Below are positions 4,003 to 55,374 of a stretch of DNA of 64,000 bases, piece after piece (positions within the stretch are counted from its first letter, which is position 1; every line of letters starts with the position of its first letter). The notes below the pieces were generated by a model. It was given only the letters and a program-made list of their open reading frames with translations. It ran no database searches and was not told the origin of the DNA. The stretch comes from a virus (Duplodnaviria; Caudoviricetes). The position numbers were made by a program, and so were the translations under genes. The stretch is taken from IMG/VR virus record IMGVR_UViG_3300011337_000669; one strand, given 5' to 3'.

Positions 4003-4128
4003 TTATTTGGAATTCTTTTGTTCAGAAACATTCTTTTTATTTTCGGTAGAAGTTTTTGACATATCATATTTCATCATCAACTTTACTCTTTCTAATGCTT
4101 CTTCAGGACTGTATTTTGGTTGTACCAT
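4003..4128 (-). CDS. 41-aa leader-family protein (MVQPKYSPEEALERVKLMMKY...)
   Basis: Manual translation; similar to N-terminus of 31287-32216 (FERIKLIMNY); TATTTAT at 4147-4153. Confidence 0.6.
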   Translation of the reverse strand: MVQPKYSPEEALERVKLMMKYDMSKTSTENKKNVSEQKNSK

Positions 4129-4161
4129 TATTCAATAATTTATAATATAAATACCTGTAAT

Positions 4162-4395
4162 TTACCAAATTTGATTTGCGGCTCCTCTTGTAAGACCTGT
4201 TTCCCATTTTTCTCCTGACGCACCCAATCTATTTGCTTTACCTCTTGTTATTGTATATGAATCAGACCATTTTGGGACTTTACCTCCCCCACCTCCTGAA
4301 GGTGCCTCAGCTTCTTGTTCTCCCATTTCATTTTTGGTTTCCGAATTCGAGAGTTTATTAAAAAAATCTATAAGGAAGTCGATGTCTAATATCAT
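4162..4395 (-). CDS. small hypothetical protein with Gly-rich linker
   Basis: ORF track; TATTTAT at 4400-4406; TRGKAN/TRGAAN internal repeat. Confidence 0.75.
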   Translation of the reverse strand: MILDIDFLIDFFNKLSNSETKNEMGEQEAEAPSGGGGGKVPKWSDSYTITRGKANRLGASGEKWETGLTRGAANQIW

Positions 4396-4443
4396 GTTAA
4401 TAAATATTTGGGATTGTCAAAAATTTTTTTTTATATTTGGGAG

Positions 4444-4974
4444 ATGAAAAGGATTATACTGTTAACTCTATTACTTTTTACTTCATGTCAACTCTACGTC
4501 ACCGAAATCAAGGATGTCACGTTGAGTGGAAAGTACGTTGTTTCCAAATTGGAGATAACAAATGTCGACCAAAATCAGACTAAAGATGAGTCGTATTTGT
4601 TAGGGTCAACATACAAAAATTCCAAATTACCCGATCCGTTCAATAATATCAAAATCAATAATTTTTACATTCATTTCGACTATTCAACGGTAAGAATGAA
4701 ACTAGTTGGGGTCACTCCTTCAGGTGAAGACATTTGGTTTTATGGATTAGACCCCAATTATATTTTTTATAAAAATTTTGGAGGTACTCCATTTCACGCA
4801 GGATACATTCAATATCACTACACCACCAAAGACGGTAGTTATGTACCAATAACATTCCTGATTGAAGATGACGGATTGGAAACCCTCCAATTGAAATCCT
4901 CGGGGGCTTGGTTTACAGGTAAATTAGGGGAAAAACAAGTTATGACAATATCATTAACCCGAGTTGGTCCTTAA
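4444..4974 (+). CDS. predicted lipoprotein
   Basis: MKRIILLTLLLFTSC lipobox signal; TATATTTG at 4432-4439. Confidence 0.8.
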   Translation: MKRIILLTLLLFTSCQLYVTEIKDVTLSGKYVVSKLEITNVDQNQTKDESYLLGSTYKNSKLPDPFNNIKINNFYIHFDYSTVRMKLVGVTPSGEDIWFYGLDPNYIFYKNFGGTPFHAGYIQYHYTTKDGSYVPITFLIEDDGLETLQLKSSGAWFTGKLGEKQVMTISLTRVGP

Positions 4975-5270
4975 TAAAATTCAGGGTCAGGTATTGAATT
5001 TGGATTAACAATATAGTATTCGTTTAGAAAAGATATTAATATATCTTCATCTAATTCAATTTTTGTTTCTTCAAATGAATCATCCTCAAGGTCATCATCA
5101 AAAAAATCAAAAGATTCTGCGATTAAGTCAAATCCATAACTCTCTATTACACTATAATCTATTGTATCGATTCTTACAACATCTTCTTCATCTTCGATGG
5201 TTCTAAATGATACATCTACTAAATTGGCCTCATTATTAAAATAATAAGATACGATTTCCTTGATTTCCAT
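4971..5270 (-). CDS. acidic hypothetical protein
   Basis: ORF track. Confidence 0.75.
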   Translation of the reverse strand: MEIKEIVSYYFNNEANLVDVSFRTIEDEEDVVRIDTIDYSVIESYGFDLIAESFDFFDDDLEDDSFEETKIELDEDILISFLNEYYIVNPNSIPDPEFY

Positions 5271-5339
5271 AACAATATCAATTTATAAACAAATATTAAA
5301 AAATATATGAAAAGTCATATTTTCCATAGAATTTAATAA

Positions 5340-5366
5340 AAAAACCCCATATTTCTATGGGGTTGA
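5340..5366 (-). terminator. intrinsic terminator
   Basis: AACCCCATA/TATGGGGTT stem with A tract on + strand (T tract on -). Confidence 0.7.
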
Positions 5367-5411
5367 AACTCATTTGAGTCGGTCCTACGAGACTATCATA
5401 GGAGGGGTAAT

Positions 5412-53633: not shown

Positions 53634-53858
53634 TTATTCTTCGACATCTTCCTCCTCATCTATTTCTCCACTACAACGGTATTCAACCTCATCTCTGTAT
53701 GAAGTGACATCTTGCTGGTGTTCCACACCATCGCATTCGTCCCAAGGACAATCTTCAACTATTTGTAACGCTTCTTCTTCTGTTTCAGCCTCAACGTGAA
53801 GGGTCCACGCCTCTTCCACATATCTCTCTGCAATAATGATAAATTTCTTCTTTGCCAT
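53634..53858 (-). CDS. small acidic protein, tandem paralog
   Basis: MAKKKFIIIAERY..AW..V.AE..EEAL.IVEDCP. Confidence 0.75.
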   Translation of the reverse strand: MAKKKFIIIAERYVEEAWTLHVEAETEEEALQIVEDCPWDECDGVEHQQDVTSYRDEVEYRCSGEIDEEEDVEE

Positions 53859-53865
53859 AACTTTT

Positions 53866-54120
53866 TTATTTTTTATATTTTTCTTCTAATTTTTTTAATT
53901 CTTCTTCATTCAAATCTTGTTCGTCATCTAATGAATATTCAATGTCATATGAATCAGTATAAACATTTTCATCATCGTGGTGATAGATATCATCGCATTC
54001 TCCATCAGGACAATTTTCAACTAATTCTAATGCGTCATCGTAATTTTCTGCCAAAACACTATATGTCCACGCGTGGACATATGTCCTTTCCGCAATAATT
54101 GTAAACTTTTTCTTTGCCAT
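53866..54120 (-). CDS. small acidic protein, tandem paralog
   Basis: MAKKKFTIIAERT..AW..V.AE..DDALELVENCP. Confidence 0.75.
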   Translation of the reverse strand: MAKKKFTIIAERTYVHAWTYSVLAENYDDALELVENCPDGECDDIYHHDDENVYTDSYDIEYSLDDEQDLNEEELKKLEEKYKK

Positions 54121-54178
54121 ATTATTATTTTTGTTTAACTGTAAGAATTTATTTCGGTATTGTCAAATAAACACAACC

Positions 54179-54304
54179 CTATTTTCCTCTTAAGAAAAAT
54201 AATACTATTGCTCCGATGATTAGGTATGTCATAAAGTTTGGGATATTGGTCAGCCCCCAAACAATGATGAATCCTACAATTAAAACATTGATTAGTCGTA
54301 ACAT
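54179..54304 (-). CDS. 41-aa membrane protein
   Basis: Manual translation MLRLINVLIVGFIIVWGLTNIPNFMTYLIIGAIVLFFLRGK; TATATTTG at 54330-54337. Confidence 0.55.
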   Translation of the reverse strand: MLRLINVLIVGFIIVWGLTNIPNFMTYLIIGAIVLFFLRGK

Positions 54305-54386
54305 GAGTTATTTTTTTTTAGGTATGCCCCAAATATAAAAAAAAATATCCGAATAAAAAAACCTCATCGATGGTGAGGTTTATATT

Positions 54387-54926
54387 TTATTCTTCAGGTT
54401 TGTATCTTTTAGCCGCGTATAATAAGTTATCAATCCCTGACTTATCAGGATTTGTAATTGAAATGTATTTTATTACATCAGGGTCATTTAGTTTCTTCAA
54501 AAAACTATTGTTTCTACTTTGAGCATAAGTAACATCAGATCTCTTCTTACCTTTAATCCTAATTATCTCCAATTGGTCAATCATCTTCTTATACAACCAA
54601 TATGGAATCTTAATGTAATTGAACCCCTCCATATCTTCAACATCTCCTAATACCTCCACTTGTGATTTTGGTAAATTAAACTTTTGAACATTGAGATTAT
54701 ACTCTTGAGCGTTGTCCATAAAAATTCTGTTTTCACGAGCCATCTCTTTGATGTTCATGATTTGGATGCTATCACCATCTTCTCCTGTAATCATATAGGC
54801 CCCAACAATTGATTTATCCTCAGGAATATAAGTTGTCTTATTAAAATCATAAGACGGATTGACATCTTGTTCTGAAATCATTCCCATCACTTCTTTGATT
54901 CTATGTATATCCTCTTGTAAGTTCAT
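54387..54926 (-). CDS. leader-family protein (MNLQEDIHRIKEVMGMISE)
   Basis: Same leader as 51679 and 52325 but unrelated body. Confidence 0.8.
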   Translation of the reverse strand: MNLQEDIHRIKEVMGMISEQDVNPSYDFNKTTYIPEDKSIVGAYMITGEDGDSIQIMNIKEMARENRIFMDNAQEYNLNVQKFNLPKSQVEVLGDVEDMEGFNYIKIPYWLYKKMIDQLEIIRIKGKKRSDVTYAQSRNNSFLKKLNDPDVIKYISITNPDKSGIDNLLYAAKRYKPEE

Positions 54927-54927
54927 C

Positions 54928-55374
54928 TTATTTCTTTTTCTTGATACAGTTCGGATATTTTTTACCAAACATTGTCTTCATACCTTTTTGAGTATAACCT
55001 TTCCAACATTTCTCAGTCAACTCACCTTCCATTTGCTCTTGCTTTTGTGTGTCTTTACAACCCCTAACGTACTTTCTTTTCAGATTTGGCTGTATATCAA
55101 AATTACTATCCAATAACATAAAAATGTCATTCATAATATCCTCTTGTACTGAAGTCCCACCAAAAGCATTCGCCATTACTTGAAACGGATCGATATCGAA
55201 AGTTACGGTAACTAAATAACTTTTGTATTCACCAGCCTCTATTACATCGATATCAACATCACATATTTCTTTTTCGTACTGACGAACAATAATCCCATCA
55301 ATCAGTTTTTTAATCAATGGCACTAAATTTTTTCGAGTTTCTTCGTGTAATATTTTTCTGATTAGGTCTCTCAT
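54928..55374 (-). CDS. leader-family protein (MRDLIRKILHEE) with C-terminal CWKGY module
   Basis: ELTE-KCWKGYTQKGMKTMFGKKYPNCIK; TATTTAT at 55380-55386. Confidence 0.8.
   Translation of the reverse strand: MRDLIRKILHEETRKNLVPLIKKLIDGIIVRQYEKEICDVDIDVIEAGEYKSYLVTVTFDIDPFQVMANAFGGTSVQEDIMNDIFMLLDSNFDIQPNLKRKYVRGCKDTQKQEQMEGELTEKCWKGYTQKGMKTMFGKKYPNCIKKKK

Follow-up and report, generated by a model that had tools for sequence, protein, structure and literature searches.

Short interchangeable N-terminal leaders in a clade of T4-like jumbo phages: candidate capsid-targeting propeptides

We analyzed a 64,000-nt stretch of viral DNA (Duplodnaviria; Caudoviricetes; IMG/VR record IMGVR_UViG_3300011337_000669; hereafter, the window) in which many small proteins start with one of a few short leaders ending in Phi-x-E, where Phi is Ile, Leu, Val, or Met. 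The leaders are conserved as peptides, are exchanged between protein bodies, and end in the same motif as the predicted maturation site of the major capsid protein of related phages. We put at slightly better than even the chance that they are propeptides of the kind known from T4 as capsid-targeting sequences (CTSs), in a greatly expanded form.

A preliminary description of the window had listed 22 leader-bearing open reading frames (ORFs) of three types, which are referred to here by the position of their first nucleotide. All 22 start with ATG and possess the N-termini reported. Type a (14 ORFs) reads M-K-(Y/V)-I-I-(T/S)-E-S-(Q/R)-(L/Y) or takes a looser Phi-Phi-T-E form; a few leaders of this type lack the exact Glu, as had been noted, namely those of ORFs 37008 (I-N-Q) and 43906 (I-T-S). 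Type b is nearly identical in ORFs 51679, 52325, and 54926, with looser relatives in ORFs 31284, 32216, and 4128, and type c is found in ORFs 55374 and 17327. An additional leader type, missing from the original list, heads the ORF at positions 37689–38276. Some leaders contain one Phi-x-E and others two (…ITE↓SQY.LL.E↓S; arrows mark the putative cut).

The leader signal was recovered independently of the list. A 14-residue profile, built solely from leaders of other phages in IMG/VR and run on the six-frame translation of the window, gave 5–29 bits for eight ORF starts and for an internal site (33906, minus strand), while the best score in the reversed window was 2.8 bits. A count with leader profiles had been among the checks proposed earlier; leaders were found in the window by this profile and widely in related phages by the pattern searches described below. 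When all predicted proteins of the window and one complete relative were clustered without bias by their first 24 residues, the leaders formed one cluster of 77 members, versus 12 for the signal-peptide cluster.

The back-translated type-a pattern was detected at no fewer than 120 IMG/VR loci, with at least 169 matches. Because an in-frame stop lies within about 20 codons upstream in nearly all of the matches listed, and never more than 53 codons away, these matches sit at or near ORF starts; the ORFs that they head are mostly 100–130 aa long. The type-b pattern was detected in 86 IMG/VR stretches, often on the same contigs and at the same loci as type a. More than 180 distinct leader-headed proteins were found in uncultured phages of approximately 290–320 kb and in fragments of such phages, and about 45–50 of the 402 ORFs (~12%) are tagged in a complete relative, G002. 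Bacterial and archaeal genomes totaling 596 Gb yielded eight chance-like matches to the type-a pattern. Seven of these head no plausible gene, six meeting a stop in 13–46 codons and one lying inside a longer frame, and the frame of the eighth is still open where its 4-kb contig of a metagenome-assembled genome stops. By this distribution, the leaders are phage-specific and confined to one clade of T4-like jumbo phages. The leader strings occurred in no paper located by a literature search. In tblastn against 50,697 phage records, two leader proteins and a 25-residue type-b leader had no match, and megablast with 16 kb of the window returned nothing relevant.

We examined the head genes of the relatives. 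All five leader-bearing contigs of 288–321 kb (92–100% complete) encode a gp21-type prohead protease (Peptidase_S77) and a capsid protein (Gp23) scoring above the Pfam cut-offs, and two of these five relatives share stretches of 72–74% identical DNA with the window. The smaller leader-bearing contigs are 21–53% fragments, and the protease is still present in two of five. The head module in the relatives is ordered portal, core protein, protease, acidic scaffold, capsid protein; in G002 the protease gene lies at 107417–108133. In T4, gp21 cleaves after L/I-x-E, a 10-residue CTS is enough for targeting, and the protease is active only within the prohead (PMC9026906); maturation removes exactly 65 residues from gp23 (PMC9546572). 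T4 gp23 Glu65 falls in an invariant alignment column, where the relatives read (H/Y/F)-L-I-N-E↓S/A, and their capsid protein is predicted to be cut at L-I-N-E↓S/A. The predicted site is near-identical to type-a I-I-T-E↓S and to the type-b ends I-I-N-E, V-I-N-E, and L-I-T-E. Comparison with the capsid maturation site, another check named in the preliminary description, gave a match of the predicted site with the leader end. As read from the T4 record, the CTS of that phage is followed by Ala, an arrangement that occurs twice. L-I-E-S is conserved in the scaffold of the relatives, and L-x-E-S lies near the N-terminus of the portal-adjacent core protein.

The scaffold proteins (L142:7183–8760; L143–L146) also end in a conserved …NPQF(L/K)RMKD(L/I)M… tail, which may be compared with the type-b helix R-I/V-K-E-L/V-M-G. 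The scaffold C-terminus (…RMKDLMSK…) was considered as a type-b-like helix; the resemblance was by eye, with a type-b profile E-value of about 8, and it was dropped as evidence.

The leader motif recurs inside proteins. A module that we call RRR is common to ORFs 39683, 51679, and 52325 and to inner parts of the ORFs at 32584–35109 and 5412–6875. Every RRR module, N-terminal or internal, opens with Phi-x-E-S/G/N a few residues ahead of a (K/R)RR motif. The earlier proposal that x-x-E junctions recur between internal modules held for the RRR modules, with INE↓G, MNE↓G, and IDE↓S in ORF 51679 and INE↓S twice in ORF 52325. In one viral protein, an RRR module is joined via M-F-E↓S to a module of a second family, YLD. 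As the motif is kept at sites without a start codon, a role in translation initiation is argued against.

The match between the leader end and the predicted capsid maturation motif, and retention of the motif at module boundaries, point to the prohead protease. They weigh against the possibility that the leaders are short linear motifs for some other common partner, such as a chaperone or assembly factor, another virion compartment (baseplate, tail), or a proteolysis or degron signal regulating late proteins. An unstructured, highly conserved, and transferable leader would suit any docking peptide, acidic bodies are atypical of DNA-embedded head proteins, and some leader genes adjoin baseplate-like genes and not just head genes. 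No candidate for an alternative partner turned up, however, and we consider this explanation unlikely.

The bodies behind the leaders were compared by sequence and by structure prediction. Six type-a ORFs (37008, 37336, 43906, 49823, 50198, and 50458) form one weak paralog family, YLD, of approximately 100 aa. The AlphaFold2 model of ORF 50458, based on a 61-sequence alignment (predicted local distance difference test, pLDDT, 88.9), consists of a helix, a four-stranded sheet, and two helices. Its first eight residues are coil, with pLDDT under 50 for residues 1–4, and helix formation starts at residue 9; the leader is the only nearly invariant block in the alignment. ORF 39683 was modeled as an all-alpha bundle whose first 20 residues have pLDDT 55–60. 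As the two models differ, the same unstructured tag is carried by two different predicted folds, and the leader is predicted to lie outside the fold and behave as a linear motif. That the leaders might form a folded domain had been put forward earlier as grounds for giving up the idea; the models give no sign of one, the leader being unstructured or of low confidence in both. Foldseek comparison of the YLD model with PDB gave no match with an E-value below 0.1, and in the ESM Atlas a YLD protein neighbors unnamed clusters whose members are all (100%) viral. When ten leader proteins of the window were compared to Pfam and PHROGs, none scored over the cut-off.

Among the matches listed, 114 distinct type-a proteins, taken from residue 21 to the end, fell into 32 BLAST body clusters. 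The corresponding figure for 70 type-b proteins was 29. The RRR module was observed behind type a in ORF 39683, behind type b in ORFs 51679 and 52325 and in viral examples, and elsewhere behind another module; a zinc-ribbon body was observed behind type a, behind type b, or without a leader. One conserved gene, located next to head and baseplate genes, has a composite a+c leader in G002, a c-type leader in relatives G003 and G004, and another one in G005. The leaders are therefore modular and exchangeable between bodies. The original claim that over 20 unrelated proteins share them was right in that the same leader is found on different folds and on many unrelated sequences, but it was overstated, because many of the proteins are paralogs of two families, YLD or RRR.

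This paralogy raises the question of whether the N-termini were merely inherited within a small number of greatly expanded and rapidly diverging families (YLD, RRR, and others), helped by occasional recombination and with no role in targeting or cleavage. Such a history would agree with 56 of the 114 listed type-a proteins belonging to one family, with profile iteration merging several more BLAST clusters into the RRR family, and with leader genes standing in tandem arrays. We nevertheless regard it as quite improbable, since the eight least structured residues are the most conserved, the same leader is found on two predicted folds and on glucosaminidase and P-loop kinase-like proteins, and orthologous bodies bear different leaders.

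Conservation of the leader is at the protein level, as identical residues share the same codon in just 94 of 189 comparisons (~50%) among nine type-a genes. For Ser8, five codons are used, drawn from both serine families (TCN and AGY), and Arg9 is encoded by AGA and CGA. Selection acts on the leader peptide; nucleotide-level conservation, which would be expected of a mobile cassette resembling the promoter/stem-loop cassettes (PeSLs) of T4-type phages, was not found in these nine genes.

Most leader genes follow a TATTTAT motif, as had been described: it lies within 40 nt upstream of 15 of the 22 listed ORFs, and the remaining seven are located directly downstream of another leader gene. In G002, TATTTAT was found within 45 nt upstream of 25 of 29 strictly defined leader genes versus 78 of 373 other genes, and host-type TAnnTTTG upstream of none of the 29 versus 29 of the 373. 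TATTTAT also precedes the protease, scaffold, and core-protein genes, and it thus marks a structural, late-type class. The spacing between TATTTAT and ATG is bimodal, with 4–6 nt or 12–19 nt (e.g., 41461–41480, 49800–49822, and 50175–50197), the 4–6 nt spacing implying leaderless mRNAs. The motif often stands directly after a C-rich/T-run terminator-like element. Sites of a second promoter class, similar to Bacteroidota TAnnTTTG (-7), are located at 1270–1310, 4400–4443, 21850–21880, 44736–44760, and 62173–62200, always before other genes and never before leader genes. The two promoter classes suggest a split between early genes read by the host RNA polymerase and late genes read from phage-specific promoters.

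It is very improbable that the leader is a nucleic-acid-level element, either a promoter-plus-start recombination cassette or a 5' coding sequence favoring leaderless-mRNA translation: although most leader genes lie behind TATTTAT, often just 4–6 nt before the ATG, terminator-promoter-ATG units recur, and T4-type phages are known to have mobile regulatory cassettes (PMC2839356), synonymous sites vary freely, serine switches between TCN and AGY included, leaders also occur on promoter-less genes and inside ORFs without a start codon, the sequence is unused by host and other cellular genomes, and many genes with the same promoter have no leader.

Gene neighborhoods were inspected in the relatives. 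In G001 and G002, the next genes after the capsid gene are leader genes, and some leader genes adjoin baseplate-like as well as head genes. A PHROGs comparison of conserved neighbors in the head module of G002 gave nothing informative. The closest cultured relative is the T4-like Flavobacterium phage immuto (MW353175), with only 41–50% identity in the thymidylate synthase and the capsid protein of related contigs. Immuto has three leader families of its own, MENFDLKKFLVEN…, MKKSQL..I.KE…, and MKKQILSEQF.RMQ.LAGIITES…, with related tags at im_111675, im_25061, im_123355, and im_125241. One immuto leader family (…RMQKLAGIITESQ) mixes b-like and a-like elements, and two leader-family members sit among the portal, protease, and scaffold genes.

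Several bodies resemble enzymes. In relatives, a complete glucosaminidase domain starts at residue 33 behind a leader (E = 8e-14). A 718-aa leader protein of G002 (255156–257312, minus strand) combines a DHH-like N-terminal domain with a wall-hydrolase domain similar to the type VI effector TseH (NlpC/P60-type). Other bodies behind leaders in relatives are weakly phosphatase-like or contain P-loop kinase-like motifs unmatched by Pfam. No signal peptide was found on the leader-bearing glucosaminidase or the TseH-like hydrolase, and wall hydrolases that are tagged and lack a signal peptide fit a virion-borne route. One G002 leader protein scored 18.5 bits against Pfam phiKZ_IP, below the 27-bit cut-off, and had only one further homolog among five relatives. 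The median isoelectric point (pI) of the bodies was 4.6 for viral type-a proteins, with 78% below pI 6, and 5.4 in the window set. T4 internal proteins are basic and lie among the DNA.

If the leaders are capsid-targeting propeptides, each leader gene would be transcribed late, from a TATTTAT-type promoter also used by head genes. The unstructured N-terminal tag would then dock the protein on the scaffolding core during prohead assembly; this tag would be of type a (M-K-Y-I-I-T-E), of type b (15 helical residues and then Phi-x-x-E), of type c, or a combination of these. The gp21-type prohead protease would cut behind the Glu of Phi-x-E, the motif also predicted in the major capsid protein, so that the mature body would be freed inside the head and exit with the DNA at the next infection. 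Tandem modules, each opening with Phi-x-E↓S/G, would be separated by the same cleavage. Docking, cleavage, packaging, and injection are what we infer, and every prediction of the idea that can be checked in sequence held. The proposal of a cargo-loading system made in the preliminary description was borne out as regards the T4-type protease and capsid protein in relatives, the matching predicted site, the swappable, unstructured, phage-specific leaders, the promoter shared with head genes, and the motif at internal modules. It fared less well on the bodies, which are acidic, unlike those of T4, and less unrelated than had been stated.

Several points weigh against capsid targeting. Apart from M-K and the terminal Phi-x-E, the leaders do not resemble the T4 CTS in sequence, and Phi-x-E at a given site is weak evidence alone, as the motif is short and common. 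With some 12% of the ORFs of a genome tagged, there would be far more cargo species than in T4, and the bodies are mostly acidic, unlike the basic internal proteins of T4. The protease and capsid assignments come from relatives with 72–74% nucleotide identity to the window in patches, and our searches found no close cultured relative of the leader-bearing phages.

A broader picture may be drawn tentatively, its chance being somewhat below even. A widespread clade of ~300-kb T4-like phages, probably infecting Bacteroidota, may use a small set of interchangeable, protease-removable address tags and load some 25–50 proteins per genome into the head for delivery with the DNA. Small acidic proteins with two novel folds would make up most of the cargo, joined by wall hydrolases and kinase-like and phosphatase-like enzymes, and the capsid would be where multi-module proteins are cleaved into individual effectors. 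T4 loads three internal proteins into its head; the effector arsenal of these phages would be richer by an order of magnitude, and new cargo would be recruited merely by gaining a tag of 7–20 residues. Tags that are capsid-targeting propeptides would provide a sequence rule for reading the injected proteome of uncultured jumbo phages straight from metagenomes. Hundreds of small proteins annotated without function would become prime candidates for anti-defense or host takeover, and the CTS principle of T4 would be ancient, general in T4-like phages, and able to grow to roughly one tenth of all genes. As natural protein-packaging handles, the tags could also be of use for Bacteroidota phages. 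The idea is directly testable, as immuto is cultured and carries related tags.

The window itself is AT-rich (GC content 32–37% throughout), with densely packed small ORFs, and the phage-like genes recognized in it include those for thymidylate synthase, homing endonucleases, and DNA methylase. A 206-aa type-a protein starting with MEFLITESQL is encoded on the plus strand at 15426–16046 (profile 9.2 bits; TATTTAT upstream; G002 ortholog at 158915). On the minus strand, leader genes are located at 24327–24824 (165 aa; VLTE then ...MIEQ, an EEK-type leader assigned by N-terminal clustering; TATTTAT upstream; G002 ortholog at 188669), 26017–26298 (93 aa; type a, MKVIISESQY; 7.3 bits), 27576–28232 (218 aa; ...ILVTEQQF, with a weakly glucosaminidase-like body, Pfam PF01832, E = 9e-4, under the cut-off), and 28485–28898 (137 aa; MKKFIVTEEEKNRI...FSEQ; N-terminal clustering). 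Also on this strand are the type-a genes at 40873–41460 (195 aa; 15.3 bits) and at 39354–39683 (109 aa; 28.6 bits), the latter with a second site (LLSE↓S) and the all-alpha RRR-family body modeled above.

Assignment to the YLD family was by paralogy. Three of its genes are on the minus strand: 36703–37008 (101 aa), with the degenerate leader MKYQINQS lacking Glu; 36992–37336 (114 aa; type a, 10.1 bits); and 43574–43906 (110 aa), with Ser replacing Glu in its leader. The other three, all type a, are on the plus strand at 49823–50134 (103 aa), 50198–50461 (87 aa; 13.2 bits), and 50458–50742 (94 aa), the last encoding the protein used for the AlphaFold2 model.

The leader type absent from the earlier list belongs to a 195-aa protein (37689–38276, minus strand; MNKSFSKIRHIQE...LMSEQ), and the same leader is present on two G002 genes. 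The neighboring 134-aa protein (38364–38768, minus strand) has a composite a+c leader (..IIRMTEADLSRLVKKAIQEQ) common to at least five G002 genes. The type-b and type-c genes are likewise all on the minus strand. Type b is followed by three RRR modules, each starting with Phi-x-E↓G/S, in the 309-aa protein at 50750–51679 (type-b and RRR profiles), and by two such modules in the 213-aa protein at 51684–52325 (RRR profile); it also heads the 179-aa protein at 54387–54926 (…VMGMISE↓Q; type-b profile 38.8 bits). A Pfam match of Terpene_synth_C to 50750–51679 (28.1 bits, just above the cut-off) is probably a false positive, as this protein is made of three tandem helical RRR modules. Type c heads a 148-aa protein at 54928–55374 (MRDLIRKILHEE; same leader on two G002 genes) and, in a loose form, a 207-aa protein at 16704–17327 (G002 ortholog at 164940).

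The looser, b-like N-termini belong to minus-strand ORFs at 29428–31284 (618 aa; ..RIHELMGVTLITE↓S; weak type-b profile match, E = 0.09), 31287–32216 (309 aa; ERIKLIMNY..TLTE↓N; N-terminal clustering), and 4003–4128 (41 aa; same b-like N-terminus, N-terminal clustering). The 41-aa ORF overlaps by 65 nt with a 244-aa ORF (3333–4067, minus strand), and the G002 counterpart is a single 283-aa ORF (149758–150609). Probably, the gene at 3333–4128 has been split by a frameshift in the phage of the window or by a sequencing error, with 4003–4128 as its head. In the 841-aa ORF at 32584–35109 (minus strand), an HNH/Vsr-like homing-endonuclease region (PHROG matches, residues 81–465) is fused in frame to an internal type-a leader copy (33880–33906, minus strand; KEYIVTESQ; 5.5 bits), after which come an RRR module and one more C-terminal domain. 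This ORF may represent an endonuclease inserted before, and fused to, a leader gene. At the termini of G002 (1–4800 and 320137–321225), long ORFs of short repetitive peptide units (MFHLFL… / QVEHLV…) are present on both strands, which implies a tandem DNA repeat at the genome ends.

Finally, we compared the leaders to known systems. The nearest is the T4 CTS, which is found on IPI, IPII, IPIII, and Alt and removed by gp21. In both systems, a short N-terminal peptide is common to otherwise unrelated, fast-evolving proteins (PMC9026906, PMC3012670), its end is Phi-x-E, the motif cut by gp21-type proteases, one of which the clade encodes, the same motif stands at the homologous site of the capsid protein, and the bodies are about 90–200 aa long. 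The leaders differ in having no similarity to MKTYQEFIAE, in forming several classes with composite and doubled sites where T4 has one class, and in tagging tens of genes per genome (about 45–50 in G002) versus 3–4 in T4. Their bodies are mostly acidic, whereas those of T4 are small and basic; tagged tandem-module proteins exist here; and the leaders differ in their codons, whereas the two identical CTSs of T4 are also identical in DNA.

In the phiKZ-like giant phages (phiKZ, 201phi2-1, and SPN3US), approximately 19 or more head proteins are cut after Glu by a gp21-related protease (PMC9026906, PMC7411985). These share with the phages described here a jumbo genome, redundant propeptide cleavage sites, and a cargo of enzymes and uncharacterized proteins (PMC9026906, PMC7411985). 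The phiKZ motif, however, is S/A/G-x-E, as opposed to Ile, Leu, Val, or Met at P3, the phiKZ propeptides are long and have no shared consensus tag, and the clade studied here is T4-like by its gp23 and gp20 module, its only link to phiKZ internal proteins being the sub-threshold phiKZ_IP score of one protein in one relative. In the P1 Dar anti-restriction system (DarB, Ulx, and others, via DarA/Hdf), defense-related cargo enters the head while it is being assembled and travels with the DNA, much as proposed for the leader-bearing proteins (PMC9024508, PMC12810830). P1 loading proceeds via ordered dedicated proteins and lacks a common cleavable N-terminal tag, and no Dar homologs were seen here. 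The PeSLs of T4-type phages resemble the leader loci in that small variable genes lie between repeated terminator-promoter units that could aid their shuffling (PMC2839356), but a PeSL is a DNA repeat outside the coding sequence, whereas the leader is a peptide with free synonymous variation. Judged by these comparisons, what appears to be new relative to T4 CTSs and phiKZ propeptides is the tags themselves, their several interchangeable classes, the larger and mostly acidic repertoire, and the tagged multi-module proteins.

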